DNA of 64,000 nt. Source: Acidimicrobiales bacterium (GTDB taxonomy: Bacteria; Actinomycetota; Acidimicrobiia; Acidimicrobiales; SHLQ01). The position numbers were made by a program, and so were the translations under genes. The first letter of the stretch is position 1; the number at the start of each line of letters is the position of its first letter. The stretch covers positions 78-64,077 of the forward strand of contig JAHDDK010000017.1 of the NCBI GenBank assembly GCA_020629375.1. Reading direction: 5' to 3'. The notes under the pieces were generated by a model. The model was not told the DNA's origin and ran no database searches. It was given only the letters and a program-made list of their open reading frames with translations. Positions 20,072 through 48,725 of this stretch are shown here, one piece after another.

Positions 20072-20108
20072 GGGGTCAGACCCTCCCGATACTGGGGGTC
20101 AGACCCCC
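20072..20108. repeat. REP-like palindrome pair (GGGGTCAGACCC, GGGGGTCAGACCCCC)
   Basis: Two copies lie between convergent genes. The second copy contains the stop codon of the Lrp gene. Confidence 0.8.
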
Positions 20109-20563
20109 TTGTCGGCGAGGACAAGATCGGCCACTGATCGTTCGAGCAAGGTGGAGAGCGCGAGCTGCGACTCGGCCCGGCCGACTTCGGGCATCGAGAC
20201 GATCTGCTGCAGCGTGAGATGAAGATGGTCGTTCGACTTGGCGGCCACTCGACAGAGCAAGTCACTCGATCCGGTCACCACGTGGATCGACAGCACCTCG
20301 GGAGTCGCTCGCAGACGTTGCACGAGCGAATCATGCCCACCTTGCAGAATCGAAAGCGTCGTGAAAGCCACGACCGGAAACCCGGCCTGGGCAGGATCGA
20401 GGTCGGGGCCGAACCCCGTGATCACCTCCTGGTCCACCATCCGACGGAGCCGCGTTTGCACGGTGCCCCGTGCGACACCGGCCACCTTGGCGAGTTCGGT
20501 GATGCTCGCCCGCCCATTCCGGCGCAGTGCCAGAAGAATCGACCGGTCTGTCGAATCGATCAT
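20099..20563 (-). CDS. Lrp/AsnC family transcriptional regulator
   Basis: DRSILLALRRNGRASITELAKVAGVARGTV HTH plus an RAM domain. Start taken at MIDSTD. Confidence 0.9.
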   Translation of the reverse strand: MIDSTDRSILLALRRNGRASITELAKVAGVARGTVQTRLRRMVDQEVITGFGPDLDPAQAGFPVVAFTTLSILQGGHDSLVQRLRATPEVLSIHVVTGSSDLLCRVAAKSNDHLHLTLQQIVSMPEVGRAESQLALSTLLERSVADLVLADKGV

Positions 20564-20704
20564 CTGCGAGGCTCTCCCTGAATCGTCACTGCGCGAATCG
20601 CGCAACCTAGTCAGATCTACTGATCATATCGATCAACTGCATTGCACTGAAGTGTCAATTCGCTCACCGTATGTAACAAGCGGCCAGCCGATACGGAGGT
20701 TCCC

Positions 20705-21337
20705 ATGGCATTTCTGAAGCGAGTCGACCACATCACCTACGCGTGTCGAGCAGGTTCAATCGAGAAGTGGGCCTGGTTCCACATCGAGGTCGAGGGCGGC
20801 ACGTTGATCAACCGCATCGACGATGTTCGACCCGACGATCCCAATGACTCGATGAAGATCTGGTGCATCGACTACGGCGAGTTTGGCGTTGCGCTCATCG
20901 AAGGCATCGATCGAGCCAAGGTGTCGCAGGTCTCCGCCTTCGTGGAGCGGCACGGCGATCATTCGGTCCAACACGTCGCCTTCGACACCTACGATCTCGA
21001 GAAGTTCCAGGAACATATGAAGTCGCTCGGAGGCTCACCTCGAGGCGAGACGCTTGTCCGCAACGACGGCTTCGGTGTGCTCAAGCAGATGTTCGCCCGC
21101 GGCTACGAAGAGGGCAGCGCCGACGAGACCAGCTTCCCCGAATACGTTCAGCGCCCCGGCGCGCAATCTGCCGAGGAAGTCGCCATCACCTTCGCAGAAG
21201 AAACGGGTAAGGGCTTCTACGACCAGGTCGCAGACGCCGTCGATTCGGGAGACACCGAGCCCTTCTTCGACTTCTCCCGCATGCCAACCGACTGGGTCGT
21301 TCCCGAAGCCGAGCCACTCGAGGGCTATCGCGCCTGA
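20705..21337 (+). CDS. VOC (glyoxalase/dioxygenase) superfamily protein
   Basis: VDHITYA...HGDHSVQHVAF is a metal-binding style motif. GGAGG lies upstream of the ATG. Confidence 0.55.
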   Translation: MAFLKRVDHITYACRAGSIEKWAWFHIEVEGGTLINRIDDVRPDDPNDSMKIWCIDYGEFGVALIEGIDRAKVSQVSAFVERHGDHSVQHVAFDTYDLEKFQEHMKSLGGSPRGETLVRNDGFGVLKQMFARGYEEGSADETSFPEYVQRPGAQSAEEVAITFAEETGKGFYDQVADAVDSGDTEPFFDFSRMPTDWVVPEAEPLEGYRA

Positions 21338-22764
21338 CAGAGTCCGGCTCTGGCGGACTCCGCGTCGATCCGAGCTACGTTCCATTCGCGCCAACTCGTT
21401 GTCGAATCGGTCTCGCAGAGGTGCGCCACCATGCGTTCGAAGCGCGAGTTCGGAAGCGGGCGAAGCGCGTCGAGGCGCGTCACGATCTCCGGCGTCGCGT
21501 CTTCGGACAGCCACGACAGCGCTCTCACGCTGATGACCCCGTCGACCTCTCGGGGATGTTCGAAGTTGTACTGCGCGATCCGTTGATCCGGGTTCGACAG
21601 CCCCATCGCGAAAACGAATGCCAGCCAGGCGCACAGCAGCGCCCCCGTCATCCACTCGGCGTCCGGACGAATCTCGTGAATCCGAACGAGCACGAGTCCG
21701 AGAACGATGACGAGCAGGAGTCCGAAACCGAACGACCACCATCGCAACGGAGTCTGGAAGTTCCGCTCGACGTACTCGGCGATCCGCTGAAGCGCGATCA
21801 CATCGATGGCCGCAGCCAGCGCGACCACGAAGGTGGCCAAGCGTCGAAACCGTCGTCGTTCGATAAGGCCCTCGAGTGCTACGTGTCGCCGGAGGGTCAG
21901 GATCAGCACGACGGTGAGCGCCGCCACGAAGAGTAATTGGAAGAATCCCGAGCGGACCTCCGAGCGCCACGCGTCTTCGCTCAGCGGTGCACCAAGCCGG
22001 CCGAGTCGCACGGCGACGAAGACGCCGAACAGTGCGGCGACCGCTCCGAGGACGATCGTCGATTCGATGGATCGGAGTCGACGTCTCGCCGTCGAACCTT
22101 CGGTGGAGCGGCCCAGGTGAACCAGCGCGAAGAGCCCGCCGATCGCTGCGGTAGTGGCAAAGCCGAGCGCGATTCGAGGCGCGGGTAGTCGTCCGATGTC
22201 GACGATCGCCGCGAACACCTCATCGGCGGAAGCGAGCAGGCTCCAGAAGATTGTGACGACGACGAGTGCGAGGGTCAGACCCCGAACGATCACGAATGCA
22301 CTGTCCCCCGGCATCGCCGGTTGGACCAACGTCCCGCGGACCCCGCTGGCCCCGCTGGCTGTCGGGTTCCCCCGCCAGGCACGGAGCGTGCGCCCGATCC
22401 GGTAGTCGAACAGGGCTTGGTTGGTCGAGGTCGCGCTCGACGCGAGAACCACGATGGCCACGCAGCTGGCGACGACGCACCAGGCAAGCCAGCGATTGTC
22501 GCGAACCACGAGGAAGGCGCTCAGCACGGCTCCTGCGAGAAGCACGCTGTTCAATGCACCCTGGTTCTTCTGCCCGGTATGACGGAGGGCCGCGCCGGTT
22601 GCCCCCAGCACTCCGACGATCGCCACAGCCAACCCGAGGCTCGGAACCCACGTTGCCGAAACGGCGACAACCGTGCCCACGAGGACGCTCAGCCAGCGAC
22701 TCGTCACCGAGGTGCTGGGGCCGTCTGCGGCCACTGGCGACTCGGGAGCGTCTACCGACGTCAT
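21325..22764 (-). CDS. polytopic membrane protein (DUF4153/DUF4173-like)
   Basis: 479 aa with more than 10 hydrophobic helices. It is a paralogue of the upstream gene, with a similar C-terminal soluble tail. Confidence 0.55.
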   Translation of the reverse strand: MTSVDAPESPVAADGPSTSVTSRWLSVLVGTVVAVSATWVPSLGLAVAIVGVLGATGAALRHTGQKNQGALNSVLLAGAVLSAFLVVRDNRWLAWCVVASCVAIVVLASSATSTNQALFDYRIGRTLRAWRGNPTASGASGVRGTLVQPAMPGDSAFVIVRGLTLALVVVTIFWSLLASADEVFAAIVDIGRLPAPRIALGFATTAAIGGLFALVHLGRSTEGSTARRRLRSIESTIVLGAVAALFGVFVAVRLGRLGAPLSEDAWRSEVRSGFFQLLFVAALTVVLILTLRRHVALEGLIERRRFRRLATFVVALAAAIDVIALQRIAEYVERNFQTPLRWWSFGFGLLLVIVLGLVLVRIHEIRPDAEWMTGALLCAWLAFVFAMGLSNPDQRIAQYNFEHPREVDGVISVRALSWLSEDATPEIVTRLDALRPLPNSRFERMVAHLCETDSTTSWREWNVARIDAESARAGLCQAR

Positions 22765-22767: not shown

Positions 22768-24330
22768 TCAGTCGCTGCTTGACGAGGTTCGGCGCGGGGT
22801 CGGGCACAGTTCGTCGAGCTCCGACTCGGCCTGGCGGTCAGCCAGGTTCCAGCCCAGCGGGCCGTAGCGAAGCTCGTCGACCGGCTCGTCACAGAGCGCA
22901 CGAAGCATCGCTCCTCGGTGGCCGGCACTCAGGTCGACGAATGCGTCGGCGATCGCGGGTACCGCATCGTTCGACAAACGGGCGACGGTGATGGCATCGA
23001 ACTCGGCCCCCGCATTCGAGAGGTTGTACCGAGCGACCGTCGCGTCGGGATTCATGACGTTCATCGAGAATACGAAGACCGCAGCCGACACCAGGGTGAA
23101 GCCGGGAAACCACGACCGACCCTCAGCGAAGCCGGCGATTGCGACCGCGTACGCCACGATGACGACGATCACCCAGCCGACCCCGGCGATCGACCAGAGC
23201 CTCAGCGGCGTGAGGTCGAAGGATCCCACGTACAGCAGCAATCGCTGAAGAGCCACTGCCGCTATCGCGAGGGTCAGACCCAAGACGATGATGGCAATCG
23301 GACGGAACCGGCAGCGTTCGCCCTCGGCGAGTGGGCGACGAAGTCCTCGTACGGCGCCGACGACCGCGAGGCTGAGCGCAGCAACCCAGACCAGCTGAAA
23401 GAACCCACGTCGGGCATGCTGCGCCTGAGTGAGCCCTTCTGTTTCGAGCACGTGGTCGACGCCGCCCACCGCAACCGCGATCTGGGTGGCGACGAAGCCC
23501 GCAAAGAGGACGGCGAGGCTTCCGAGCACGATCGTGACCTCGACCGGGGCGAAGCCCGAGGGTTTGATGCGCATCTCCTGCGGAGCGGTTTCGTGGGCAG
23601 CGCGGGACAGCAAGCCGAGCAGGGCAACGGCGACGAGGGCCGACAACAGCACGTGTCCGATCATCGATGGCAGGTTGTCGAGAAGCAGCAGGCTGGCGAA
23701 CACGTCGTCGGCGGAGGCGAGAAGTGCACCAAAGACGAACACGACCGGCACCGCGACCAACAGGCCACGGAGAATCGCTGTGCCCTGCCCTCGCTGGGCT
23801 GCCGTTCGAACAAACCGTTGAACCATGTCGATGCCGTACGTCCACTCCACCACCTGCGACCCGGCGTGCGCCACGAAGGCAACAAACGGGAGATCGAAGA
23901 GTCGTCCGCGCTGGGAAAGCCCGACGGCGACGGTCCCCAGAAGCACGATCGCCATCGCCGTCGCTGCAGTCAGTGACCCGGACGATCGGATCGCCAGCCA
24001 TGGCGCAAGGGCAAGCGCGGCGAGCACAAGGACTTTCGACGATCCGGTTTTCAGTCGCCCCGATCCCCACAACCCGCCGGCAAAGACCGCGACACCCAGT
24101 GTGCTGGCCAAGCCGATGACCCCGACCCGAAGGCCGATGTTCAGCAGGAACCCCGCAACGACGACAGCGAGCAGCTCTTTCCAGCCAAGGTCCGGCTTCT
24201 CCGATCGAGCGAATGGGTTAGGTGGGGGCGTAGGCTTCAGGGAGGTGTTCGGCCCCGCAACGCGAACATGGGTTGCGTCGGCCGCCGGGTGTTCCGGGAC
24301 CGGCGGTGGTGGTTGATCAGAGATCGACAT
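22768..24330 (-). CDS. polytopic membrane protein (DUF4153/DUF4173-like), tandem paralogue
   Basis: Start taken at MSISDQ. It has the same helix pattern and C-terminal tail (ARYNLSN...L..LC) as 21325..22764. Confidence 0.55.
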   Translation of the reverse strand: MSISDQPPPPVPEHPAADATHVRVAGPNTSLKPTPPPNPFARSEKPDLGWKELLAVVVAGFLLNIGLRVGVIGLASTLGVAVFAGGLWGSGRLKTGSSKVLVLAALALAPWLAIRSSGSLTAATAMAIVLLGTVAVGLSQRGRLFDLPFVAFVAHAGSQVVEWTYGIDMVQRFVRTAAQRGQGTAILRGLLVAVPVVFVFGALLASADDVFASLLLLDNLPSMIGHVLLSALVAVALLGLLSRAAHETAPQEMRIKPSGFAPVEVTIVLGSLAVLFAGFVATQIAVAVGGVDHVLETEGLTQAQHARRGFFQLVWVAALSLAVVGAVRGLRRPLAEGERCRFRPIAIIVLGLTLAIAAVALQRLLLYVGSFDLTPLRLWSIAGVGWVIVVIVAYAVAIAGFAEGRSWFPGFTLVSAAVFVFSMNVMNPDATVARYNLSNAGAEFDAITVARLSNDAVPAIADAFVDLSAGHRGAMLRALCDEPVDELRYGPLGWNLADRQAESELDELCPTPRRTSSSSD

Positions 24331-27539: not shown

Positions 27540-28483
27540 GTCTGGTCCTTTGGGTTCGGGTTGGCGTCGACGGGCGCCGGGGCGTCGCCCACGGTGTGCA
27601 GTAGAAGGTCGTTGTGGCGTTCGAGGAGCTGCGCTGCGAGGCAGTGGGCAGCGGTAGAGCCGAACTCGGCTTCGGCCCGAGCGTAGAGCTCCTCGACCGC
27701 CTCGGTGAACGGGAGATCGATGCCGAGGTCCTCGGCGAGTTGCGTGGCGAGCCGCATGTCCTTGGCTGCGTGGCTGAGCGGAAACGAGGCGTCGTATGTG
27801 CCGGCCAGGATTTCGGGCCCGTACACATCGGCGGCGTAGCTGCGCCCAGCAGAGTGCTGGATCATCTCGAGCATCGCCTGGGGTCTGACCCCACCCTTCA
27901 CGCCCAACAGCATCGCTTCGATCAACGTGATCGTCTGCGTGTAGCAAAGCGTGACTTGGGCGATCTTCGCCACGACGCCCGCACCAGGCGGTCCGACATG
28001 GGTGACTCGCTCCCCGATCACGTCGAGTAGGGGTCTGACCCCATCGAACTCATGCTCTTCAGCGCCGACGAAGATCGCCAACGTTCCGGCCTGCGCACCT
28101 TCGGGTCCGCCGGATACCGGCGCATCGAGAACAGTGACACCGCAGTTGGCGCCTTCTTTCCGGATCGCCGAAGCCGTGACCGCGTCATTCGTCGACAGTT
28201 CGATCCACGTTGAGCCGGCTGCCATCACGCCGAGGAGGCCCGACCCTCGCGAATCGCCAAATGCGAGCTCTCGGATCTGTGGAGGCCCAGGCACCGACGT
28301 GAAAACCACGTCGGTGCCCTGCGCCGCTGCTTCTGCGTTGTCCGCAGCCGTTGCGCCGGATTCGACGACACGACGTAGACGTTCCGAATCGAGGTCCGAA
28401 ACAACGAGGTCGTGGCCCGCGTCGATCAGGCGCCGTGCTGCGCCACCTCCGATGTTGCCGAGACCAATGAACCCGATTCGCAT
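27536..28483 (-). CDS. NAD(P)-dependent oxidoreductase (3-hydroxyisobutyrate dehydrogenase family)
   Basis: MRIGFIGLGNIGG Rossmann start. Its stop overlaps the aldolase start by 4 bp. Confidence 0.85.
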   Translation of the reverse strand: MRIGFIGLGNIGGGAARRLIDAGHDLVVSDLDSERLRRVVESGATAADNAEAAAQGTDVVFTSVPGPPQIRELAFGDSRGSGLLGVMAAGSTWIELSTNDAVTASAIRKEGANCGVTVLDAPVSGGPEGAQAGTLAIFVGAEEHEFDGVRPLLDVIGERVTHVGPPGAGVVAKIAQVTLCYTQTITLIEAMLLGVKGGVRPQAMLEMIQHSAGRSYAADVYGPEILAGTYDASFPLSHAAKDMRLATQLAEDLGIDLPFTEAVEELYARAEAEFGSTAAHCLAAQLLERHNDLLLHTVGDAPAPVDANPNPKDQT

Positions 28484-29014: not shown

Positions 29015-29161
29015 GGGGTCAGACCCCCACCACTCGACCATCGCCAGTTGGATGTCGGGATTTCGGGGTCAGACCCCGGGATCTCGGGATCTCGGGTCTG
29101 ACCCCAAGCATTGTTCTCTCGCTGCGGAAGAAGCACAGCGGGTCAGTGGGGGTCAGACCCC
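29015..29161. repeat. REP-like cluster, 4 copies of GGGGTCWGACCCC
   Basis: Copies at 29015, 29065, 29094 and 29148. The last copy overlaps the final codons (GSDPH-stop) of the GH1 gene. Confidence 0.85.
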
Positions 29162-31568: not shown

Positions 31569-32467
31569 GGCAGGGGTACTCCTTCGCTCGCTTCGACAAT
31601 GTCGTAGCAATCGTTGCGGTCGAGATGGACATCGGCAGCTGCGATCGCAGCCGTGAGCCTCTCGGGCGTTTGGGTGCCAAGCAGCGCCACGGGCCGCGAG
31701 GGGTTAGCGAGAACGAACGCCGTGGCGATCGTCGCTCGGTCTGTGCCTTCCCGTTCGGCGAGTCGGTCGACGACCTCGAGAAGTTGGGGTCTGACCCCCT
31801 CGCCGCTGAAAAGACGTCCTCCCGCAAGCGGCGACCACGCGAGAGGGACCACGCCGTCACGCATCGAGCGATCGAACGTGCCGTCGCGCATCGGTTGAAG
31901 TTGAACCACGGAGAACTCGGGCTGGGTCGACACAACCGGAGCCGACAGGTGATGGGCGAGCGCGTCGTATTGATCGACAGTGAAGTTGGAGATACCCACC
32001 ATGCCGATCTTGCCGGCTGCAATCAGGCCGTCGAGGGTGTCGGCAATCTGCGCCGGATGGGCGAACATGTCCGGCCGATGAATCTGCCAGAGATCGATGT
32101 GGTCGACTCCGAGCCGCGACAGTGAGGCGTCAACTGCAGCAACGAGGTACTCCGAGCTGGAGTCATAGGGCAGCGGCGGCATGATTCCGCCCTTGGTGGC
32201 CAGCACCATGCGGTCACGGAGCCCGGGAGCATCCGCAAGCACCTGGCCGAGTCGCTCTTCGTTTTGGCCAAAACCGGTACCGCCCCAGTCCAAGCCGTAC
32301 ACATCGGCCGTATCGATGAGGTTCATTCCCACATCGAGTGCGGTTTCGATGAGCCTGTGGTTCGCAGCTGGGTCCTCAGCCGTGAGACGCCAAGTCCCAT
32401 ATCCGAGCGCTCCAACATCAGGTCCGTCGGTTCCGAGCCGACGAGGAGTCATGTCGACGAGAGTCAT
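31565..32467 (-). CDS. aldo/keto reductase
   Basis: GYGTWRL...DTADVYG...LATKGG motifs. Confidence 0.9.
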   Translation of the reverse strand: MTLVDMTPRRLGTDGPDVGALGYGTWRLTAEDPAANHRLIETALDVGMNLIDTADVYGLDWGGTGFGQNEERLGQVLADAPGLRDRMVLATKGGIMPPLPYDSSSEYLVAAVDASLSRLGVDHIDLWQIHRPDMFAHPAQIADTLDGLIAAGKIGMVGISNFTVDQYDALAHHLSAPVVSTQPEFSVVQLQPMRDGTFDRSMRDGVVPLAWSPLAGGRLFSGEGVRPQLLEVVDRLAEREGTDRATIATAFVLANPSRPVALLGTQTPERLTAAIAAADVHLDRNDCYDIVEASEGVPLP

Positions 32468-32535: not shown

Positions 32536-33624
32536 ATGAACCATCGCCACATTCGCTACGGGATCATCGGTACCGGGATGATGGGCGTCGAGCACATCTT
32601 GAACATCCTCGCACTCGAGGACACCAGTGTTGTGGCCATCGCCGATCCCGATGCCGGCTCAAGAGACCACGGGCTCGAGGCGGCGGGGGGCGAGGCGCGG
32701 GTTTACGAGGACTATCACGATCTCCTCGCCGACGAGGATGTGGACGCCGTGGTCGTTGTGACCCCGAACTTCACCCATCTCGAGGTCATGCGAGACGTGC
32801 TTGCAACCGGCAAGCACGTGCTCTGCGAGAAGCCCCTTTGCACGACCGCAGCCGATTGCCAAGCTCTAGTCGAGATGGCCGAGGGGTACGAAGGCGTGGT
32901 CTGGGTCGGCCTCGAATACCGGTACATGCCTGCGGTTCAAGCGCTCATCGCTGAGGTTCATGCCGGCACGGTGGGTGACGTCAAGATGGTGGCGATCCGC
33001 GAACATCGCTTCCCGTTCCTCGTCAAGGTGGGCGACTGGAACCGATTCTCGTCGAACACGGGTGGCACGTTGGTGGAGAAGACGTGTCACTACTTCGATC
33101 TGATGAATCTGATCGTCGGTCGACGGCCAGTCCAGGTGTACGCCTCGGGCGCGCAGGATGTGAACCATCTAGACGAGTCGTACGGGGGTCAGACCCCGGA
33201 CATCCTCGACAATGCGTTCGTGGTCGTGGACTACGAAGGCGGGGCTCGGGCGATGCTCGACCTTTGCATGTTTGCTGAGGCCACCAAGGATCAAGAGGAG
33301 CTGTCCGTTGTGGGCAACCTCGGCAAGGTCGACGCTCGGATTCCGACTTCCGAACTGCACGTCGGCATTCGCTCCGGGAAGGGCATCGCGGACATCGGCC
33401 AGGTCGACACGCGTGCGATCACGAACGACGCCATCAAGCACGAAGGCCTCCACCACGGTTCGAGCTATCTCGAGCACGTCGATTTCGCCGCTGCCATCCG
33501 GGGTCAGACCCCAGCCCTAGTGACGCTCGAGGACGGCCTGTGGTCAGTGGCCATGGGCGAGGCCGCACACCGTTCTATCCAGGAGAACCGTCCCGTCCGC
33601 CTCACCGAAATCCTGGGCATCTGA
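32536..33624 (+). CDS. Gfo/Idh/MocA family oxidoreductase
   Basis: IRYGIIGTGMMG Rossmann motif and EKP motif (VLCEKPL). Confidence 0.9.
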   Translation: MNHRHIRYGIIGTGMMGVEHILNILALEDTSVVAIADPDAGSRDHGLEAAGGEARVYEDYHDLLADEDVDAVVVVTPNFTHLEVMRDVLATGKHVLCEKPLCTTAADCQALVEMAEGYEGVVWVGLEYRYMPAVQALIAEVHAGTVGDVKMVAIREHRFPFLVKVGDWNRFSSNTGGTLVEKTCHYFDLMNLIVGRRPVQVYASGAQDVNHLDESYGGQTPDILDNAFVVVDYEGGARAMLDLCMFAEATKDQEELSVVGNLGKVDARIPTSELHVGIRSGKGIADIGQVDTRAITNDAIKHEGLHHGSSYLEHVDFAAAIRGQTPALVTLEDGLWSVAMGEAAHRSIQENRPVRLTEILGI

Positions 33625-33696: not shown

Positions 33697-33814
33697 GGGG
33701 TCAGACCCTAACGGACCCCAACCGAGCGGTCGATCGTTCATCGAAACTGCGCCCGACCGGGGTCTGACCCCTGCATCTCCGAACTGCGCCCGATCGGGGT
33801 CTGACCCCTGCATC
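33697..33814. repeat. REP-like cluster, 3 copies, including a ~36-bp tandem duplication
   Basis: Copies at 33697, 33759 and 33797. Units 33743-33777 and 33781-33814 are near-identical (GAACTGCGCCCGAYCGGGGTCTGACCCCTGCATC). Confidence 0.85.
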
Positions 33815-33981: not shown

Positions 33982-34722
33982 ATGAGACCGCTTCGAATCG
34001 ACTATGACGGCGCCTGGCATCACGCGATGAATCGCGGAGCCGCCCATCAGCCGATCTTTCGGGACGACGTCGACCGGCACACGTTCCTAGGGTTCGTCCA
34101 GAAAGCCGTCGAAAACACCGGTATACGGATCCATGCGTACTGCCTGATGGGTAATCACTTCCACCTTCTTGTCGAATCCGTGGACAGCTCGCTCAGCGCC
34201 GCGATGAAGATCATCGGTCAGGAGTACACACAGTGGTTCAACCGACGCCACGGCCGAGACGGCGCACTCTTCCGCGGCCGATTCACGTCCAAGATTGTGG
34301 AAGACGATGGGCATCGGCGGACGATCGTCGACTACATCCACGCCAACCCCTTCAGCGATCAGACAGCTCGATCCGGATTCTGCTGGTCCAGCTTCGATGC
34401 CTTGAAAGGGCTCATTCGCCCGCCGAGCTTCCTCACAACGAGCGTGGTCGGCCGGATCTTCAGACCCAAGAAGCGCGCTACTCGAGATCGTCGAAACCCG
34501 TGTTCGCCCCACAGAGGACAACACCGACGACCTCGTCCTTCGCAGGCCGGTACATGCCCGCTCGCAGCACAGCCACCGTCGTGGCCACCGCAGGCTCGAC
34601 GAGAACTCGAAAGGTTGTCCAGAGCCAACGACGCGCCTCGAGGACGACCTCATCCCGAACCGTCAGGCCCGCAGCGTCGACCCGGGACAGCGCCTCCCAA
34701 GCTAGCTCACCGATCTGTGTAG
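33982..34722 (+). CDS. REP-associated tyrosine transposase (RAYT; IS200-like Y1/HUH transposase, COG1943 type)
   Basis: MRPLRIDYDGAWHHAMNRG N-terminus, HUH motif NHFHLLV and catalytic-Tyr motif VDYIHANP. The last ~80 codons are Arg/Pro-rich and antisense to the next gene, so the real C-terminus is uncertain. Confidence 0.75.
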   Translation: MRPLRIDYDGAWHHAMNRGAAHQPIFRDDVDRHTFLGFVQKAVENTGIRIHAYCLMGNHFHLLVESVDSSLSAAMKIIGQEYTQWFNRRHGRDGALFRGRFTSKIVEDDGHRRTIVDYIHANPFSDQTARSGFCWSSFDALKGLIRPPSFLTTSVVGRIFRPKKRATRDRRNPCSPHRGQHRRPRPSQAGTCPLAAQPPSWPPQARRELERLSRANDAPRGRPHPEPSGPQRRPGTAPPKLAHRSV

Positions 34723-35461
34723 CCCCGAGCGCATCCGCAGTGACTCCGGAGACTTCCACGTCCACGGGGTGTCCGGCTCGTACGGCCGACGCGTACGCGC
34801 TGGTACGTTCGCCTTCGCATGCGATGATCGCTGGCCCCTTCGTTGACCCGTCACCGTACGAGGCGATAGCGGCACCGCCAGCGAGTCCACCGCCGCCGCA
34901 GGCGTACAAGATGGTGTCCAGCTCACGGCTCGACCTCTCAACCTGGTCGACAAACTCTGTGGTGACTGTTGCAGCACCGGCCATGACGCTCGGATGGTTA
35001 TACGCATGGATGTTTGTCGCCTCAAACCGCTCGACGTGTTCGAGACATGCCTCTAGGGACTCTGAGTAGATCGAGCCAACCTGACGAACGTCAGCACCGT
35101 AGCTGCGGAGCCGATCGACCTTCGACGGGTTCGAGATCGTTGGGACGAAGATTGTCGGGGTCAGACCCCGCTGCTTGGCCGCCCACGCCACCGCAGCCCC
35201 ATGATTTCCACCCGATGCCGCTGCGACCCCGCCCGGGCCGATCTCATTCGTTGCGAGGAAGTTCGTAGCGCCACGAGCCTTGAACGACCCCGAGTGCTGT
35301 AGGTGCTCGAGCTTGAACACGACCGGTGCGCCTGCTTCGAGCCCGAGCTCGTCCCGGCTGACTTCGAGCAGTGGGGTGGATCGGACGACGTTGCGGAGCC
35401 GCAAGCTTGCAGCTCGGACTTCGGCGATTGTCGGAAGAGTCATAATGGATGATTCAACCAT
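34478..35461 (-). CDS. PLP-dependent threonine/serine dehydratase family protein
   Basis: PLP-lysine motif HSGSFKARGA and glycine loop GGGGLAGG. Confidence 0.85.
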   Translation of the reverse strand: MVESSIMTLPTIAEVRAASLRLRNVVRSTPLLEVSRDELGLEAGAPVVFKLEHLQHSGSFKARGATNFLATNEIGPGGVAAASGGNHGAAVAWAAKQRGLTPTIFVPTISNPSKVDRLRSYGADVRQVGSIYSESLEACLEHVERFEATNIHAYNHPSVMAGAATVTTEFVDQVERSSRELDTILYACGGGGLAGGAAIASYGDGSTKGPAIIACEGERTSAYASAVRAGHPVDVEVSGVTADALGATQIGELAWEALSRVDAAGLTVRDEVVLEARRWLWTTFRVLVEPAVATTVAVLRAGMYRPAKDEVVGVVLCGANTGFDDLE

Positions 35462-35530: not shown

Positions 35531-35652
35531 GCTCGAACGAGGGTCTGACCCCCGTTCGTTCCGTTCGCTGACTGGCCTCGGTTGCGAGAGCTCGCTGACC
35601 GTGACCGCACGGCTTGGAGGGGTCTGACCCCGTGCAACGAGGGTCTGACCCC
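35531..35652. repeat. REP-like cluster, 3 copies plus one degenerate copy
   Basis: Copies at 35531, 35619 and 35641. A degenerate GGTCAGAC follows at about 35668. Confidence 0.8.
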
Positions 35653-36647: not shown

Positions 36648-36648
36648 C

Positions 36649-40570: not shown

Positions 40571-40638
40571 TTCAGGGGTCCCCTCCTGGTTGGGATTCTG
40601 TGGGAGACGCGGACCTGTACCCGCGCACCGTCGCAAAC

Positions 40639-40762: not shown

Positions 40763-40847
40763 GGGTCTGACCCCGGGTCGTGAGCCCGGGTCGGCCGAGT
40801 CCCTGACCCACGTGTCGACAGGTCGGGGCATGTCAGGGTCTGACCCC
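40763..40847. repeat. REP-like palindromes, 2 copies
   Basis: GGGTCTGACCCC at 40763 and 40836, between the lacI-family gene 3' end and the SBP operon promoter region. Confidence 0.8.
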
Positions 40848-40908
40848 GACCGGCTCAGAGCCCCCACGACCGGACTGGCGAGCTTGCCAGCACGGCTTCA
40901 GAAGATGG

Positions 40909-41949: not shown

Positions 41950-41955
41950 GGGCAG

Positions 41956-43539
41956 TCAGGCGTCCGTGCTCGGTGCGAGCCGGCCAATAATGCCCTCGTC
42001 GGGGTCCAGGGTCAGCGAATCCATCGGCGCATCTCCGCTGCGATACAAGACGGTGCAGTCGAGGTCGAGATCGATCGGCTGGTCGCTGATGTTGGCGGCG
42101 AACAACACGTCATGACGCCGAAACGCAACGACGCTTCGGTCGGGTTCGACCCACTCGAACGGCGCGTGAGCGATCTCTTCGAGTTCGGCGCGCACGGCGA
42201 TGAGTCGGCGATGTCGATGAAGCCACGACGTGGGATCCTCGCGTTGGACTTCGACGGTGTCGGCAGCCGAACGTCCGCCGAATGGCAGCCATGGAGTACC
42301 GGTCGTGAATCCAAAGCCGTCGATCGGCTCCCACGGGATTGGAGTCCGTGTGGCGTCTCTCCCGCTTGCGGCATCACCGTCTTCGCCGATGGGATCGAGC
42401 TTGTCCTCGGGACGCAATTCGGAACTCTCGAGGCCAAGTTCTTCGCCTTGATACAAGAACGGCATGCCGGGAAGTCCCATCAGCAAGACGCAGAACGCGA
42501 GGGCTCGCCGTCGGCCCAGGTCGCCCCGACCAAATCGAGTGACGGATCGGTGTTCGTCGTGGCTGTTCTGGGCCCAACCAAGCCCGGCCGAGATCGAGCG
42601 GATGGGGGTCTCGAACGTCGACTTGATAGACGTGGCAGACCAGTCCATGTGCATCGCGCCGAACCAGAATCCGACGTGGAGCGCGTCGCCGCCCGACACG
42701 AGACGATCGAGCTTGTCGAGACGGTGAAGGTCATAGGTTTCGCCGAGCAGGAGCGCGTCGTACTCAGCGGCGATGCGATTCCACCGTCGGTAGATCTCGA
42801 CCGTTTCGGGTTGGAGAATGTCGTGTTCGTGCTCGAAGGCGTTCCATTGATCCCATCGGAACATCGAGTCATCACACGGTCCGATCTGCGGGTTTGACCG
42901 GAGCTGCTCGTCCTTGACCAGTGCTTGGGCAACGTCGATCCGAAACCCGTCGACGCCTCGGTCGAGCCAGAACCGCAGCACATCGTCGAATGCATCGACG
43001 ACGGCCGGATTGCGCCAGTTGAGGTCGGGCTGAGACGGAAGGAAGAGGTGCAGGTAGTACTGGCCCGACGCCTCGTCGAGGGTCCATGTCGTGCCGCCGA
43101 AGTATCCGACCCAGTTGTTGGGCGGGCCGCCGTCGGGCGCGGGGGCCGCCCAGATGTAGTGGTCTCGGAACGGATCATCGGGTCCGGACTTCGCGCGGAC
43201 GAACCATTCGTGTTGTTCGCTCGTGTGGTTTGGGACCAGGTCGATGATCACCTTCATGCCGAGCTCGTGGGCACGGGCGACGCACGAATCGACCGCATCG
43301 AGATCTCCGAAGAGTGGGTGAACGGCGGTGTAGTCCGCCACGTCGTAGCCCCAGTCGTCCATCGGTGAGGGGTAGAACGGCGTGATCCAGACGACGTCGA
43401 TGCCGAGCCAGGCAAGGTGATCGAGGCGCGACGTCAGGCCACGGAAGTCACCGACGCCATCACCGTCGCCGTCGCAGAACGACCGAATGTAAATCTCGTA
43501 GCCGACGGCGTGATCCCACCATCGGGACATGTGTGTCAT
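41956..43539 (-). CDS. GH13 alpha-glucosidase / oligo-1,6-glucosidase
   Basis: DGDGDGVGDFRG, DLVPNHTS and GFRIDV motifs. Start at MTHMS or MSRWW (43539 or 43530). Confidence 0.9.
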   Translation of the reverse strand: MTHMSRWWDHAVGYEIYIRSFCDGDGDGVGDFRGLTSRLDHLAWLGIDVVWITPFYPSPMDDWGYDVADYTAVHPLFGDLDAVDSCVARAHELGMKVIIDLVPNHTSEQHEWFVRAKSGPDDPFRDHYIWAAPAPDGGPPNNWVGYFGGTTWTLDEASGQYYLHLFLPSQPDLNWRNPAVVDAFDDVLRFWLDRGVDGFRIDVAQALVKDEQLRSNPQIGPCDDSMFRWDQWNAFEHEHDILQPETVEIYRRWNRIAAEYDALLLGETYDLHRLDKLDRLVSGGDALHVGFWFGAMHMDWSATSIKSTFETPIRSISAGLGWAQNSHDEHRSVTRFGRGDLGRRRALAFCVLLMGLPGMPFLYQGEELGLESSELRPEDKLDPIGEDGDAASGRDATRTPIPWEPIDGFGFTTGTPWLPFGGRSAADTVEVQREDPTSWLHRHRRLIAVRAELEEIAHAPFEWVEPDRSVVAFRRHDVLFAANISDQPIDLDLDCTVLYRSGDAPMDSLTLDPDEGIIGRLAPSTDA

Positions 43540-43579
43540 GGACGACCTAACGCAGAGAACAGATCTGGGCCGACTTGAA

Positions 43580-43593
43580 TGTAACCGTTTGCA
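43580..43593. promoter_or_regulatory. LacI/GalR-type operator candidate
   Basis: TGTAACCGTTTGCA differs at one position from the 40639 site. It lies about 41 bp upstream of the alpha-glucosidase start. Confidence 0.45.
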
Positions 43594-43768
43594 GAGTAGT
43601 GCGGCCAACAGTCACACCGACTGTAGATACGTCATCTCCTGGAGCGATCAAGCGCAGCGGGCTCGTGCCGATAGGCGATATGGCGTGGGTTGGTCACAAA
43701 CCCACCGACCAGACCACTCGCGCGGCGTAGTGTTTGAGCCGCACCCAAGATCACGAGGACCACACAAG

Positions 43769-44656
43769 ATGAATCCCGACCAGCTGCGCAAGATCACCGA
43801 CGACATCGGCTTCATCGCCGCTCTCGATCAGAGCGGCGGCAGCACACCCAAAGCCCTCAAGGCCTACGGCGTCGAGGAAGATGAGTACGAGGGCGAAGAC
43901 GAGATGTTCGCCAAAGTGCACGAAATGCGCACCCGTATCATCACGAGCCCGTCGTTCACCGGCGAGCGCGTCATGGGCGCCATCCTCTTCGAGAACACGA
44001 TGAACCGCCAGATTGACGGCATGGACACCGGCGACTTCCTGTGGAACGAGAAGAACGTCGTGCCGTTCATCAAGGTCGACAAAGGCCTCGCCGACGAAGC
44101 CGACGGCGCCCAGGTGATGAAGCCGATGCCCGACCTCGACGATCTGCTGTCTCGTTCGGTCGAGAAGAACATGTTCGGCACGAAGATGCGCTCGGTCATC
44201 AAGCTCGCGAACGAAGTCGGCGTCGGCGCGGTCGTCGATCAGCAGTTCGAGATCGGCCACCAGATCCTCGGACATGGCCTCGTGCCGATCATCGAGCCCG
44301 AGGTCGACATCAACTCTCCCGAGAAAGCCACGGCCGAAGGCCTGCTCCGAGACGCCATCGCCGCCCAGCTCGACACCATCGGCGACGACCAGGTCGTCAT
44401 GCTCAAGCTGACGCTCCCCGAAGAGGCCAACTTCTACGCCGACCTCATCGCCCACCCGAAGGTGGCCAAAGTTGTCGCGCTCTCCGGCGGTTTTGCCCGT
44501 GACGAAGCCAACCGTCGCCTCTCGGAGAACAACGGCATGATCGCGAGCTTCTCGCGTGCTCTTGCCGAAGGACTCTCCGCCAAGCAGAGCGAAGACGAGT
44601 TCGACGCCACGCTCGACGCCACCGTGCAGTCGATCTACGACGCCTCGGCCACCTGA
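43769..44656 (+). CDS. class I fructose-bisphosphate aldolase
   Basis: GFIAALDQSGGSTPKAL and LVPIIEPEV motifs match the ~296-aa bacterial class I FBA. GAGGA lies upstream of the ATG. Confidence 0.85.
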   Translation: MNPDQLRKITDDIGFIAALDQSGGSTPKALKAYGVEEDEYEGEDEMFAKVHEMRTRIITSPSFTGERVMGAILFENTMNRQIDGMDTGDFLWNEKNVVPFIKVDKGLADEADGAQVMKPMPDLDDLLSRSVEKNMFGTKMRSVIKLANEVGVGAVVDQQFEIGHQILGHGLVPIIEPEVDINSPEKATAEGLLRDAIAAQLDTIGDDQVVMLKLTLPEEANFYADLIAHPKVAKVVALSGGFARDEANRRLSENNGMIASFSRALAEGLSAKQSEDEFDATLDATVQSIYDASAT

Positions 44657-44662
44657 TCCCCC

Positions 44663-45631
44663 GTGCTCGACGACGCCGCCCTCGCCCCCGATCCGGATCG
44701 GAGGGCGGCGGTCGAGCGCGCCCTCACGCAGATCGCCGGGCCCGGAGCCGTGCTTGTGGCATCGGATCGTCTCCTCGCGGCCGACGTCGCTCGGAGATCG
44801 TGGGCGGGCGAAGGGTTGAGCTTTGCCTCCCCGCTTGAGCGCGTCGCCAGCGCTGTCGCCACCGATACGGAAGGCATCGATCAGGAGTTCATTGCTGACC
44901 TCGAAGTCCAGGGAATGAACCGCCTCACCTATCTGGAAATTGCGGGCATCGTCGCGCGGCTCTCGACCGTCGATTGGTACGCACGGGGGATCGGCGCCGC
45001 GCCCCCACCGCTCGGCACGCCGTCGGATGAGCCGCCAACGGCAAACGTCGCCGCTGACGCAGCGATCACCGACTCGTGGGTTCCCATGACCTCCGAGGCG
45101 AGCGCACCGCGCACCCTCGACGCCCTTCCCGATGAGGGCGAGGCGCTTCGCTCCCTGCTCGAACCGACGTATATCCCGATGGCGAAGATCGGGGACTGGT
45201 CGGCGGGCGACTCGCTCACGCGACCCCAGATCGAACTCGTCGCATCTCGGACCTCGTATCTCAACGAGTGCTTCTATTGACTGCTCTCCCACGCATACTT
45301 CCTCCGTGAGAGTGGAGCGCCAGCAGGGCTCGACATCGACCTGAAAGCCATCGTCAACGGTACGCCGATCCCCGCAATCGACGGATCGGGCGAGCTGATC
45401 GGTCTCGTCGACGCGCTGGGAACCGATGCGAGCGGCGACGTCAAAGCCGCTCAGGCCGCGTTGACCGATCGCCTGGGCGACGCCGCCGCCGAGCGGGCGG
45501 CCGGCGTGGCCGCCAGCTTTCAGATGATGAACCGAATGCTCGACGCCGTCGGAGCGCCCGTGCGAACCAAACCGCACCTCGTCGACGTCGCCGTCGAGAT
45601 GGGCTTCGACCCCGCCGACCTCACCCGGTAA
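44663..45631 (+). CDS. AhpD/CMD-family (alkylhydroperoxidase-like) protein, candidate selenoprotein with in-frame TGA at 45278-45280
   Basis: The track ORF stops at ...SYLNECFY-TGA. The same frame then continues LLSHAYFLRESGAPAGLDIDLKAIVNG... for 116 codons to TAA 45629-45631. The TGA sits exactly where the second Cys of the family motif N-x-C-x-Y-C-x-x-x-H is expected. Confidence 0.55.
45281..45326 (+). other. candidate SECIS-like hairpin immediately 3' of the in-frame TGA
   Basis: CTGCT (45281-85) pairs with AGCAG (45322-26). CTCC(C)AC (45286-92) pairs with GTGGAG (45312-17). The apical region is about 19 nt. Folded by hand only. Confidence 0.35.
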
Positions 45632-45678
45632 CCGCCTCACGGGTGCCAGCGAACCCGGCGGAGCGTGAGTCGGTGAGT

Positions 45679-45723
45679 GGGGTCTGACCCCTACCGAACG
45701 TTCGTTAGGCGGGGTCAGACCCC
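45679..45723. repeat. REPIN-like inverted pair GGGGTCTGACCCC-N19-GGGGTCAGACCCC
   Basis: The spacer TACCGAACGTTCGTTAGGC contains the palindrome CGAACGTTCG. The element lies between convergent genes. Confidence 0.85.
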
Positions 45724-45765
45724 TGCTCGCCCACACTCGCGATCGCCCGGAGCCCAGCACACCGC

Positions 45766-46665
45766 CTAAGAAAAGCGCTGCTCGAGCTCGACGACCTCGG
45801 GTAGGCCGATGGTGTCGGTGAACTCTCCGAATGCCATGAGCTCATCAACGAACGCCGCCGGAGTGCCGTCGGCGCGAAGCCGACCGAGAAACTCCTGCAT
45901 CGCCCTCGTCGCGGAGAGCAGCGTCCCAATCGGCGCAATGATCATGGCGAAGCCAAGCTCGGCGATCGTGGCGTGGTCGAGCGGCGGCGTCTTGCCACCT
46001 TCGGCCCAGTTGAACAGCAACGGCACGCCCCCGAACTCCGTCGACACCCGTTCGATCTCCTCGATACCTTCGAGCGCTTCGACAAAGAGAACATCAGCGC
46101 CTGCCTCCGCACACGCGTGCGCACGTCGAATCGCCTCGTCGAGGCCATGGGGCGCCCGCGCATCGGTGCGGGCGATCAGCACGAGGTCGGGATCGGTTCG
46201 AGCGGCGGCGGCGGCGCGGACTTTGCCGACCATTTCTTCGTGCTCGACGACCTGCTTGCCCTCCATGTGCCCGCACTTCTTTGGGAGGACCTGGTCCTCC
46301 AAGTGCAATCCAGCCACGCCGGCGCGCTCGTACTCCTGCACCGTCCGAATGACGTTGATCTGATTGCCGTACCCCGTGTCCGCATCGGCAACCACGGGCA
46401 GCCGAACAGCGTCGACGATCCGACGTGCGTTGCCCACCATTTCGTGAAGGCCGAGCAAGCCGACGTCCGGCCGGCCGAGCAGGCCAGCGGATGTTCCGAA
46501 CCCGGTCATGTACACCGCATCGAATCCGGCTTGCTCGATCAGGCGGGCGCCGAGCGCGTCGTAGCAGCCGGGCAAGACCATGGGATTGCGTTCCGACATC
46601 GCCGATTGAAGTGCCGCACGAAGGGCGGGTCGCGGATTGGTCCGTGGAGCGAGGAGGTCGGCCAT
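45766..46665 (-). CDS. isocitrate lyase/PEP mutase superfamily protein (methylisocitrate lyase / phosphorylmutase-like)
   Basis: PGCYDALGARL...ADADTGYG...LEDQV..KKCGH motifs. Start taken at MADLL (46665). Confidence 0.85.
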   Translation of the reverse strand: MADLLAPRTNPRPALRAALQSAMSERNPMVLPGCYDALGARLIEQAGFDAVYMTGFGTSAGLLGRPDVGLLGLHEMVGNARRIVDAVRLPVVADADTGYGNQINVIRTVQEYERAGVAGLHLEDQVLPKKCGHMEGKQVVEHEEMVGKVRAAAAARTDPDLVLIARTDARAPHGLDEAIRRAHACAEAGADVLFVEALEGIEEIERVSTEFGGVPLLFNWAEGGKTPPLDHATIAELGFAMIIAPIGTLLSATRAMQEFLGRLRADGTPAAFVDELMAFGEFTDTIGLPEVVELEQRFS

Positions 46666-46786
46666 GGCAGCTCTTTCCCAGAGGAGTCCGCAGCCGGCCG
46701 AGAACCGCTCTCGCCCCAACCGAATCGTCGGGGTCCGGCGCTCGTCAGACAGTACCCACTTGGCCAGGACGTCTACGGTTCGAGCC

Positions 46787-47422
46787 ATGAGCCAGTCCCC
46801 CACCGACGATTATCGAGCGGCCGGGTTCAACCGTCGGCTCGGTCCAGGCGAACACATCGCCGTCCTTATCGTCGACATGTGCCGGGCGTACTTCACCGAG
46901 GGTTCGCCCCTGAACCTCGCTGACAGAGGACCGGTCGACGCGTGCAACGAGCTTGTCTCTGCAGCACGAGCCGCGCAGGTGCCAGTGCTGTGGAGCCGAG
47001 TGGAGTTCGGCGCCGATCCACTTGAGGCGCCTGGCCGAGTGTTCTACCGAAAAGTGGGCGCCCTCTCCTCGTTCGACGCCGGCAATCCACTCGGCGATTG
47101 GCTCGATGGGCTCGAGCCAATCGAGGACGAAGTCGTGGTGACGAAGACCGGCGCGTCCGCGTTCTTCGGAACGTCGCTCATCGACGAACTCCGGCGCCTC
47201 GACATCGACACGTTGCTGATCGGCGGCGTGTCGACCAGCGGCTGCGTCCGAGCAACGGCGATCGACGCGTGCCAACACGACATCGTGGCGATCGTCGTCG
47301 ACGACGCCTGCGGCGACCGCACGGAAGACATTCATCGTTCGAACCTGTTCGACCTCGATGCGAAGTACGCCGACGTCGAACCGCTTGGTCGAGCTCTCGA
47401 GATCCTGTCGGAAGCCGTCTAG
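46787..47422 (+). CDS. isochorismatase-family cysteine hydrolase (RutB-like amidohydrolase)
   Basis: VLIVDM, VVVTKTGASAFFGT and LLIGGVSTSGCVRAT (catalytic Cys) motifs. Start at ATG 46787. Confidence 0.8.
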   Translation: MSQSPTDDYRAAGFNRRLGPGEHIAVLIVDMCRAYFTEGSPLNLADRGPVDACNELVSAARAAQVPVLWSRVEFGADPLEAPGRVFYRKVGALSSFDAGNPLGDWLDGLEPIEDEVVVTKTGASAFFGTSLIDELRRLDIDTLLIGGVSTSGCVRATAIDACQHDIVAIVVDDACGDRTEDIHRSNLFDLDAKYADVEPLGRALEILSEAV

Positions 47423-47530
47423 AGAGCGTCAGTTGCGGACAGTTCACGTTGTCGTGACGTGTTACGCCCGTCACAGGTAGCCCCGCGCGTGATAGGCCCA
47501 GGGGACGCACCCTCCCGAAAGGCACTTCCC

Positions 47531-48580
47531 ATGGACGTCGGCATCTTCATTCCCATCGGCAACAACGGCTGGATGATGTCGAAGACGGCACCGCAGTACA
47601 TGCCGAGCTTCGAACTCAACAAGGAGACGGCGATTGAAGCCGAGAAGCAGGGCTTCGAGTTCTTGCTCTCGATGGTCAAACTCCGCGGGTTCGGCGGGGA
47701 CACCGAGTTCTGGGATCACAACCTCGAGTCGTTCACCCTGATGGCTGGCCTTGCGGCAGCGACGAACGACATTGGCTTGTACGCGTCGGTGGCGCTCCCG
47801 ACGATGGAACCGGCGATGGTCGCTCGAATGGCGTCGACGATCGACGACATCAGCGATGGACGTTTTGGCATCAACATCGTGTCGGGCTGGAATCAGATCG
47901 AGTACAGCCAGATGGGCGTCTGGCCCGGCGACTGGTACTTCGAGAAGCGCTACGACTACGCGACCGAATACGTGACGATCATGCAAGACCTGTGGTCGAC
48001 CGGTGCGAGCGACTTCAAAGGTGAGTACTTCCAGATGGACGACTGTCGTCTCTCACCGCCTCCCCGGGACAACAAGGTTCCGCTGGTCTGTGCCGGGCAG
48101 TCCGACCGGGGCATGGAGTTCTGCGCGACGTACGGCGACTACCAGTTCATCATCGGCACGAGCGACCTCGACGTTGTCCGAGCTGATGCCGCACGCCTGA
48201 TGGAAGCCGCCGAGAAGACTGGCCGCGACGTTGGGGTCTACGTGCTCTTCCAGATGACGATGGGCGAGACCGACGAAGAAGCCGAGGCCAAGTGGCAGTC
48301 GTACAAGGACGGCGCCGACCTGGAGGCGATCAAGTTCTTGATTGGCGCGGCCGAGATGGACACGGCTGGCGCCACGGCCGACAAGATCGCCGAGATGCAA
48401 CAGGCGTTCAACCTCAACATCGGCGCCATCGTCGGCAGCCACGCCACAATCGCTGCACGCCTCGACGAGGTCGCAGAGATCCCGGGCGTCAAGGGAACGA
48501 TGTGTGTTTTCGATGACTACCCCGTCGCCACGAAAGAGTTCGGCGAGAAGGTCATGCCCCTCATGCAATCCCGCAAGTGA
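47531..48580 (+). CDS. rutA: pyrimidine monooxygenase RutA-like LLM flavin monooxygenase
   Basis: The sequence appears alignable along its length with my recollection of E. coli RutA. Shared blocks: IFIPIGNNGW..S..APQYMP.FELNK and SM.KLRGFGG.TEFWDHNLESFTLMAGLAA. Confidence 0.8.
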   Translation: MDVGIFIPIGNNGWMMSKTAPQYMPSFELNKETAIEAEKQGFEFLLSMVKLRGFGGDTEFWDHNLESFTLMAGLAAATNDIGLYASVALPTMEPAMVARMASTIDDISDGRFGINIVSGWNQIEYSQMGVWPGDWYFEKRYDYATEYVTIMQDLWSTGASDFKGEYFQMDDCRLSPPPRDNKVPLVCAGQSDRGMEFCATYGDYQFIIGTSDLDVVRADAARLMEAAEKTGRDVGVYVLFQMTMGETDEEAEAKWQSYKDGADLEAIKFLIGAAEMDTAGATADKIAEMQQAFNLNIGAIVGSHATIAARLDEVAEIPGVKGTMCVFDDYPVATKEFGEKVMPLMQSRK

Positions 48581-48725
48581 GGGTCTGACCCCAACCTAAC
48601 GAACGTTCGGTAAGTCGGGGTCAGACCCCAACCGAACGCGCGTTAGGCAGGGTCAGACCCCAACCGAACGCGCGCTAGGCAGGGTCAGACCCCAACGAAC
48701 GGCGGGTCGGGAGGGGCCTGACCCC
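48581..48725. repeat. REP-like tandem cluster, 4 copies plus 1 variant
   Basis: Copies at 48581, 48617, 48650 and 48682, with variant GGGGCCTGACCCC at 48713. Spacers are about 20 nt and related to one another (AACCGAACGCGCGTTAGGCA twice). Confidence 0.85.

Follow-up and report, generated by a model that had tools for sequence, protein, structure and literature searches.

A short palindrome repeated through an Acidimicrobiales genome is probably the hairpin apex of one RAYT clade's REP, with both intergenic and genic copies

A 64,000-nt stretch of an Acidimicrobiales genome (contig JAHDDK010000017.1 of assembly GCA_020629375.1; hereafter, the window) contains one short palindrome, GGGTCWGACCC, in many places both between and within genes, and the question that this locus raises is what kind of element it is and how it came to be there. 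An initial inspection made without database searches (the sequence-only reading) had counted 32 copies, had estimated that chance would give well under one, and had likened their grouping at gene ends to that of repetitive extragenic palindromic (REP) sequences and REP doublets forming hairpins (REPINs). We found exactly 32 copies, at the places listed; dinucleotide-preserving shuffles gave 0.05 on average and never more than 1. As set out below, the motif, in its full 13-nt form GGGGTCWGACCCC, is likely to be the apex of the REP hairpin of one clade of REP-associated tyrosine transposases (RAYTs), with intergenic copies that arrived by insertion and, in this lineage, a set of genic copies that arose by substitution.

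Chance and base composition were excluded both by the shuffles and by Markov models of orders 1 to 5 trained on the window sequence with the motif masked. In a window with a GC content of 0.62 to 0.66, GGGTCWGACCC is the commonest 9- to 13-mer. Every other palindrome is present in at most six copies, which rules out a general tendency to make palindromes, as in quasi-palindrome correction. The full 13-mer accounts for 18 copies (56%; 0.00 expected in the shuffles); this is a majority, although the earlier description of "most" was generous. The motif is all or none: 32 of 36 GTCWGAC heptamers and all 32 GGTCWGACC nonamers fall in the full 11-mer, and 5 one-mismatch copies of the 11-mer were observed against 1.7 expected. 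With 0, 1, 2, 3, and 4 mismatches, the 13-mer occurs 18, 16, 4, 12, and 106 times, respectively, against Markov values of ~0, 0.1, 1.5, 15, and 117; near-miss copies are almost missing, and the comparison with a Markov expectation that the sequence-only reading had proposed puts the motif, within the window, far above that expectation. When the 32 copies were oriented by the central base, the consensus was R-GGGTCTGACCC-C, and the logo revealed this R at -1 and a C/T at +12 but nothing conserved past the 13-mer. A lone 13-mer hairpin folds at -10.7 kcal/mol. The unit is as unusually short and perfectly palindromic as had been remarked, and this proves to be the interesting part.

The window also carries a gene for a RAYT-type Y1 (HUH) transposase on the plus strand (33982..34722; Pfam Y1_Tnp, E=2e-10), in an open reading frame (ORF) that spans 33853-34722 and has its likely start at 33982; the conserved core, which is intact, ends near 34476, and three motif copies lie 175 to 285 bp upstream. 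Among 2917 homologues, the best are 56 to 57% identical over residues 1-160, and an alignment of 10 sequences shows no variation at the HxH motif (H59, H61) or at Tyr118 of YIHxNP. A search of PDB with the single window sequence returned no match; with a family profile, the best solved relative was E. coli TnpA_REP (4ER8; E=0.005), with the HxH and YIxxNP motifs aligned. The neighboring RAYT protein that the sequence-only reading had named is thus real, as judged by its Y1_Tnp domain, its HxH and Tyr motifs, and a match below cutoff to an NCBIfam model, and we place it, on the basis of these comparisons, as a RAYT-like member of a divergent clade. Past residue ~165, the last ~81 codons of the ORF lie antisense to the 3' end of the convergent PALP gene (overlap, 34478-34722; 245 nt), and homology stops about where the overlap begins. 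The gene seems to be truncated at its 3' end, with the native C-terminal tail and the downstream REP gone.

Relatives of this protein that are 41 to 56% identical to it are flanked by the same 11-mer at 13 other loci, on both sides at about eight of them (L001, L002, L123, L133, L143, and others), so that looking for the motif beyond the window, as had been advised, found it in other genomes. At L001, where the RAYT is 56% identical to that of the window, the motif lies at -198, -155, and +19 of the gene and forms the apex of a longer hairpin, GTAAT...GGGTCTGACCC...ATTAC; at L002 (53% identical), it lies at -258, -198, -143, and +21. The downstream copy is inverted at both loci. A metagenome scan for RAYT relatives yielded 80 loci, of which 11 carry the 11-mer, typically ~50 to 370 bp from the matched region; about half of the 11 have copies on both sides, and at L144 the upstream copies are ~1 kb away. 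Sister cores built on the same heptamer stand beside neighboring RAYTs, as GGTGTCWGACACC and as 27-nt double hairpins of the form GGTGTCAGACCC-nnn-GGGTCTGACACC. In a neighbor-joining tree of RAYT cores, repeats with a GTCWGAC core accompany 18 of the 22 members of one clade, to which the RAYTs of the window, L001, and L002 belong, but only 4 of ~60 outside it. Two RAYT genes of the clade, those of L123 (640-1305) and L002 (10001-10828), occupy the same locus, beside ftsX-ftsE-prfB-secA, which suggests vertical inheritance there; those of the window and L001 lie at other loci. The window alanine racemase was recovered with 100% identity (L227) in the sequencing run that yielded L001 (Logan SRR14415274). 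The window organism might carry a second, divergent RAYT like that of L001 (P0002, 56% identical), with the same motif beside it, or L001 might come from a co-occurring relative.

We also scanned one genome per species for two motif copies 8 to 38 nt apart and obtained at least 120 stretches, from Firmicutes (GC content, 0.34 to 0.46), Bacteroidales, Planctomycetota, Acidobacteriota, Gemmatimonadota, Omnitrophota, a spirochaete, Proteobacteria, and many Actinomycetota. Pairs in the low-GC genomes are inverted and form long hairpins. Among the matches listed for these stretches, the outer bases are G...C in 62% of 338 copies, and A...C is the second commonest class, the same asymmetry as in the window; neighboring pairs among these matches are inverted in 104 cases and direct in 84, with the A-form preceding the T-form 73 times versus 31 for the reverse. 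Only 19 viral contigs hold a motif pair, making a phage origin unlikely. The nine copies that Rectinema has in 8 kb all lie between genes and form part of a longer REP. We conclude that one RAYT clade has a REP hairpin with the 13-mer as its conserved apex and with lower stems that are lineage specific; in the window lineage, the lower stem is all but gone.

How are the copies in the window arranged? With gene context taken from Pfam-supported ORFs, seven intergenic clusters hold 20 perfect 11-mers (2+4+3+3+2+2+4) and one degenerate copy at 48714. The sequence-only reading had recognized all seven clusters but had assigned them 18 copies, and the spacing of 30 to 60 bp that it gave was too narrow: the measured range is 21 to 79 bp. 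Its description of their positions was accurate, since all seven begin 0 to 75 nt beyond at least one stop codon and three (clusters 1, 6, and 7, starting at 20073, 45680, and 48581) lie between convergent genes. Cluster 1 (20073..20106; two copies) separates an Ldh_2 gene from an AsnC-type gene, whose stop codon (20099-20101) is provided by the second copy. The T-form strand of the motif contains TGA, and the motif supplies the stop codon also of a GH1 gene in a relative described below (locus L203, 6562-6564). Cluster 2 (29016..29160; four copies) lies downstream of the window's GH1 gene, with the copy at 29150 overlapping the final GH1 codons. Cluster 3 (33698..33807; three copies) sits between the stop codon of a GFO/Idh/MocA (GFO) gene and the RAYT start and represents the upstream REPs of the REPtron. 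Cluster 4 (35541..35651; three copies) occupies a 244-bp gap from an ABC permease stop codon to the PALP start, and cluster 5 (40763..40846; two copies) lies downstream of a LacI-type regulator gene.

Clusters 6 and 7 open with a common inverted doublet of ~45 nt, made of a motif, the spacer CCGAACG-TT-CGTTAGG, and a second motif. Cluster 6 (45679..45723), between an unnamed ORF and a convergent phosphoenolpyruvate mutase gene, consists of this doublet, T-form then A-form, and looks like a REPIN. Cluster 7 (48581..48724; four perfect copies and the degenerate one) follows directly after the stop codon of a luciferase-like gene, faces a convergent acyl-CoA dehydrogenase gene, and continues past the doublet as a 32-nt tandem array; many arrays in the window are direct repeats. 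Folding of the clusters, mostly by copy-to-copy pairing, yields -27 to -83 kcal/mol; in six of them the z score lies between -2.8 and -6.6 (-44.9 kcal/mol and z = -6.6 for cluster 6; -82.6 kcal/mol and z = -6.1 for cluster 7), and cluster 5 folds like shuffled sequences (z = -0.6). No T-run was found in the sequence after the clusters, none of the six terminator-like sites (hairpin plus T-run) in 29000-48999 coincides with a cluster, and no Rfam family reached its gathering score across the window; a canonical intrinsic-terminator pattern, one of the roles that had been suggested, does not describe these clusters.

The copies are spread unevenly along the window: 29 lie between 20 and 52 kb, the first 20 kb (the housekeeping tsaD-rimI-alr region) hold 3, each genic, and the last 12 kb (51860-64000), which include a 1677-aa BTAD-nSTAND1-WD40 gene (54984-60017), hold none. 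A 21-nt tandem repeat (3.7 copies, 77% matches) at 40335-40411, in the region of a solute-binding-protein gene, has no relation to the motif.

The origin of the clusters could be read from a syntenic relative. The nearest named homologues of the window genes come from metagenome-assembled genomes of Acidimicrobiales or Acidimicrobiia, which agrees with the high-GC actinobacterial-type host that had been proposed, and two loci on one 305-kb contig of GCA_020629635.1, L203 and L226, are syntenic with positions 1 to 44 kb of the window at protein identities of 52 to 96%, mostly 60 to 90%. The GFO and PALP genes overlap in L203, with neither the RAYT gene nor cluster 3 between them; the Ldh_2 and AsnC genes overlap by 24 bp in L226, and cluster 1 is absent. 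At the site of cluster 2, L203 has a single copy, the one carrying the GH1 stop codon; its PALP-permease gap measures 14 bp and has no copy, versus 244 bp and three copies (cluster 4) in the window, and the gap orthologous to cluster 5 likewise has none. Conversely, GCA_020629635.1 has its own clusters at sites where the window has none. Relative to L203 and L226, the intergenic clusters are insertions, and these gaps, the doublet common to clusters 6 and 7, and the 32-nt array therefore show that intergenic copies arrive as inserted DNA and then expand locally, as the REP/REPIN model holds. In a more distant relative (L205, 7818-7858), one REP with a lower stem (CACAATG-GGGTCAGACCC-CATTGTG) lies right after the GFO stop codon, the position that the cluster and RAYT gene take in the window.

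The other 12 of the 32 copies (37%), on which the sequence-only reading made no remark, lie inside Pfam-supported coding domains and use three reading frames, in which they read as GLT (six copies), GVRP (three), GQTP (two), and GSDP (one). Ten have an alignable orthologue in L203 or L226. Five of these are perfect in both genomes: a copy in a RimI-type GNAT gene (3034..3044; RGLTL) and one in an Aminotran_5 gene (15913..15923; GGLTL), both conserved in L226, two in a 3-hydroxyisobutyrate-dehydrogenase-like gene (27881..27891 and 28031..28041; GVRP in each), and one in an aldo/keto reductase gene (31787..31797; GVRPQ), the last three conserved in L203 and the reductase copy absent in the outgroups L205 and L206. 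One copy, in the alanine racemase gene (11615..11625; WGLTP), is one-off in L226 by a synonymous change of ACC to ACG. Four are found in the window only: in the second of two DUF4153 genes (23271..23281), twice in the GFO gene (33186..33196, GGQTP, and 33501..33511, RGQTP), and in the PALP gene (35158..35168; RGLTP). For the copy in the first DUF4153 gene (22272..22282), the orthologue lies at the locus edge and could not be aligned, and the last copy is in the Pfam-supported domain of a carboxylesterase gene (51849..51859; GSGSDP).

One-mismatch versions of the motif occur at four places worth recording. One in a glycosyltransferase gene (GGGTCAGATCC, 10620..10630) has as its orthologue in L226 (position 11315) a genic copy that is perfect; a G-to-A change, which turns Gly into Asp, sets the two apart, and motif decay thus also happens. 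GGATCAGACCC occurs twice, at 5485..5495 and 9721..9731, and supplies stop codons on the minus strand, in the first case that of a minus-strand gene (5488-5490) and in the second that of a glycosyltransferase gene (9724-9726). The fourth, GGGTCTGGCCC, recovered by the one-mismatch search, is at 12519..12529.

Are the genic copies maintained, and how did they arise? With motifs masked, the background identity between the window and L203/L226 is 0.79, 0.85, and 0.495 at codon positions 1, 2, and 3, respectively, or ~0.71 per nucleotide overall. Arithmetic from these values puts the probability that a neutral 11-mer survives intact at ~0.02, so that 5 perfect copies of 10 are far beyond chance. 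Over the full 13-mer, the three copies shared with L203 (dehydrogenase twice, reductase) are identical at 38 of 39 positions. Insertion as the source of the genic copies was ruled out: no indels were found at four copies compared with solved homologues in PDB, among them the dehydrogenase copy at 27881 and the GFO copy at 33186, or against the orthologues. With L205 and L206 as outgroups, the gains could be polarized. The reductase copy arose in the ancestor shared by the window and L203, where G[M/I]R[N/A]E became GVRPQ and the Arg codon changed from CGG/CGT to AGA, a codon used for 22 of 607 Arg residues here, three of the 22 being in motifs. Both GFO copies were gained in the window lineage alone, by substitutions confined to the 13-mer that changed amino acids; the copy at 33186, which three relatives lack, is separated from the L203 sequence by 5 substitutions inside the 13-mer, and that at 33501 by 6 to 8, depending on the alignment. 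The genic copies arose by substitution and are conserved at the DNA level, and the lack of near-miss copies favors a templated change made in one step or else very strong selection. At outgroup loci with a RAYT (L002/L206), there are almost no genic copies; because of this, and because the Rectinema copies are all intergenic, the genic spread is a property of the window lineage and not of the whole repeat family. L123 has the 15-mer GAGGTCTGACCCCAT, a one-off version of the 13-mer, at both 3745 and 4225, inside prfB-like and secA-like ORFs, and these may represent genic copies in a second Acidimicrobiia lineage.

A model that would accommodate these observations starts from GGGGTCWGACCCC as the apex of a REP hairpin, with a 5- to 6-bp stem and a 3-nt loop, belonging to one clade of HUH/Y1 RAYTs. 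By analogy with E. coli TnpA_REP and IS200/IS605, the motif would fold on single-stranded DNA, and the RAYT would bind the hairpin and cut and rejoin DNA beside it. Short REP or REP-doublet units could thus be inserted into intergenic DNA, where they would persist chiefly at sites directly beyond stop codons and be multiplied there by tandem duplication, and arrays that are transcribed would form very stable 3' hairpins. In the window lineage, the repeat has been reduced to the bare 13-mer, and a second, genic population has arisen through clustered substitutions that leave the length unchanged and is kept perfect by constraint on the DNA itself, which may reflect either a host function or a process that depends on the RAYT.

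Much in this picture matches the REP/REPIN-RAYT systems of E. coli (TnpA_REP) and Pseudomonas fluorescens (REPINs): a Y1 HUH gene is flanked by the repeat, usually inverted; the palindrome is dispersed between genes, just after them, and partly as inverted doublets and arrays; and the distribution fits one or few RAYT genes with many repeats. Unlike REPs, which are usually imperfect palindromes of 20 to 40 nt and normally restricted to a species or genus, the conserved unit here is a perfect palindrome of 11 to 13 nt whose core is common to several phyla. Some features of the window are also those of the GTAG/CGTC-tagged REP superfamilies, palindromes that lie downstream of ORFs, sometimes supply the stop codon of a neighbor, and are in some cases genic (Di Nocera et al. 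2013, PMC3733652). The genic copies of those families, however, are insertions that add amino acids (PMC3733652), whereas ours leave the length unchanged, and no unpaired GTAG or CGTC end is present here; neither GGGTC/GACCC nor TCWGAC was found in the text of that paper. Likewise, no description of this core was found in the searchable text of papers on REPs and RAYTs or elsewhere as a bacterial repeat. Literature matches to GGGGTCTGAC are presumably cloning-vector or primer sequences.

Several observations weigh against a REP/RAYT origin of the motif. The likeness to REP/REPIN behavior claimed by the sequence-only reading holds for the 20 clustered copies, but it leaves unexplained the 12 of 32 that are not extragenic, with their origin by substitution and their constraint at the DNA level; a third of the copies being genic and of such origin is itself a departure from extragenic REPs. 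The motif has no mutant cloud of the kind seen in REPIN populations, and no unpaired GTAG or CGTC tag was found at its ends in the oriented logo of the 32 copies. The window RAYT scores 51 bits against the NCBIfam equivalog model REP_Tyr_transpos ("REP-associated tyrosine transposase," NF047646), short of the cutoff of 80, and its E value against 4ER8 is 0.005 even by profile, as befits a divergent clade. It may also be inactive, because its native C-terminal tail and the downstream REP have been lost. The pairing of enzyme and repeat is at the level of the clade and not one to one, since the RAYTs of L001 and L002, which are only 53 to 56% identical to that of the window and lie at other loci, carry the same flanking core. 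The action of the RAYT on the motif is proposed by analogy, and no RAYT reaction is known to write a motif into DNA without adding length.

The genic copies give weight to a different explanation, in which the motif is a genome-wide signal like HIP1 of cyanobacteria (GCGATCGC): a double-stranded site that a host protein (for instance, a methyltransferase, nucleoid protein, or repair factor) would recognize and that selection would keep up everywhere. The RAYT-flanking copies would then be secondary, for instance if the RAYT targets a host signal already there or hitchhikes on it. HIP1 too is a short perfect palindrome, hyperabundant in coding and noncoding DNA and conserved at orthologous sites above background; it is described as overrepresented and conserved in genes and of unknown function (PMC5861425), the same pattern of overrepresentation and conservation as that of our motif. 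The perfect dyad with a W center, the 37% of copies that are genic and in three frames, the conservation of copies between orthologues, which extends to synonymous sites and the rare AGA codon, and the all-or-none form without a near-miss cloud would all be expected of such a site. HIP1, however, is 8 nt long, is associated with orphan methyltransferases, and has no inserted intergenic arrays, whereas the motif here has a flanking transposase; its core keeps to a single RAYT clade over widely differing phyla and GC contents; the nine of nine intergenic Rectinema copies lie inside a longer REP; intergenic copies come as insertions and tandem arrays; and the RAYT-bearing outgroups L002 and L206 are almost without genic copies. 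We therefore consider a HIP1-like signal as the sole explanation unlikely.

Placement at gene ends raises a second possibility, that the clusters are immobile bidirectional terminators or mRNA 3' stabilizers that evolved in place, for which the start of all seven within 0 to 75 nt of a stop codon, the convergent genes around three of them, and the great stability of the hairpins could be cited. Against this stand the missing T-runs, the identical doublet and spacer at two loci (clusters 6 and 7), and the fact that the clusters are insertions relative to L203/L226; moreover, evolution in place explains neither the genic copies nor the flanking of RAYT genes, and we judge it quite improbable. 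Lower still is our estimate for a DNA-uptake-type signal built up by biased uptake and recombination. DNA uptake sequences (DUS) of Neisseria have a comparable density, coding copies in several frames, and inverted pairs downstream of genes, and the motif, at ~0.5 copies per kb, shares all three traits with them and with the uptake signal sequences (USS) of Pasteurellaceae. Uptake signals, however, are lineage specific, are not palindromic, have no transposase link, and come with abundant near matches, whereas the core described here is a palindrome present in many phyla and linked to a transposase clade, with only 5 one-off versus 32 perfect copies; no competence genes were seen in the window, where they were not systematically searched for. 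On balance, we hold a REP apex of one RAYT clade, inserted between genes and acquired by substitution within them, to be likely.

In the usual view, REPs and REPINs are lineage-specific, extragenic passengers of single-copy RAYTs, and the motif described here departs from it in three ways. For a specialist, two features would come as surprises: a REP core that crosses phyla and genic copies that behave like HIP1. One core of 11 to 13 nt, extending from Firmicutes to Actinomycetota and tracking one RAYT clade, is a minimal candidate substrate for DNA recognition by RAYTs. A survey that sorted RAYT groups into those associated with REPINs and those not so associated used the frequency of flanking 16-mers as its criterion (PMC5581495), which we infer would overlook a 13-nt core whose flanks vary. 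Cores of this length probably escape that criterion, and some RAYT groups regarded as lacking REPs may need reexamination. More tentatively, and we hold this bolder version to be possible rather than likely, the REP core would in this Acidimicrobiales lineage have escaped the intergenic compartment, with the bare 13-mer written blockwise into coding DNA, its length unchanged but amino acids altered, and then held perfect over long periods. This would imply either an undescribed process of templated correction that depends on the RAYT or the hairpin, or the co-option of the core as a chromosome-wide, HIP1-like host signal, and an entire RAYT clade, possibly a group put down as not REPIN associated from 16-mer counts, would have a cross-phylum REP too short for such methods. 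The genic copies, with their origin by substitution and their purifying constraint, join the question of what REPs do for their hosts to the 30-year-old question of HIP1, and the system lends itself directly to comparative genomics: the comparison of two syntenic genomes already reveals polarized gains, losses, and insertions.

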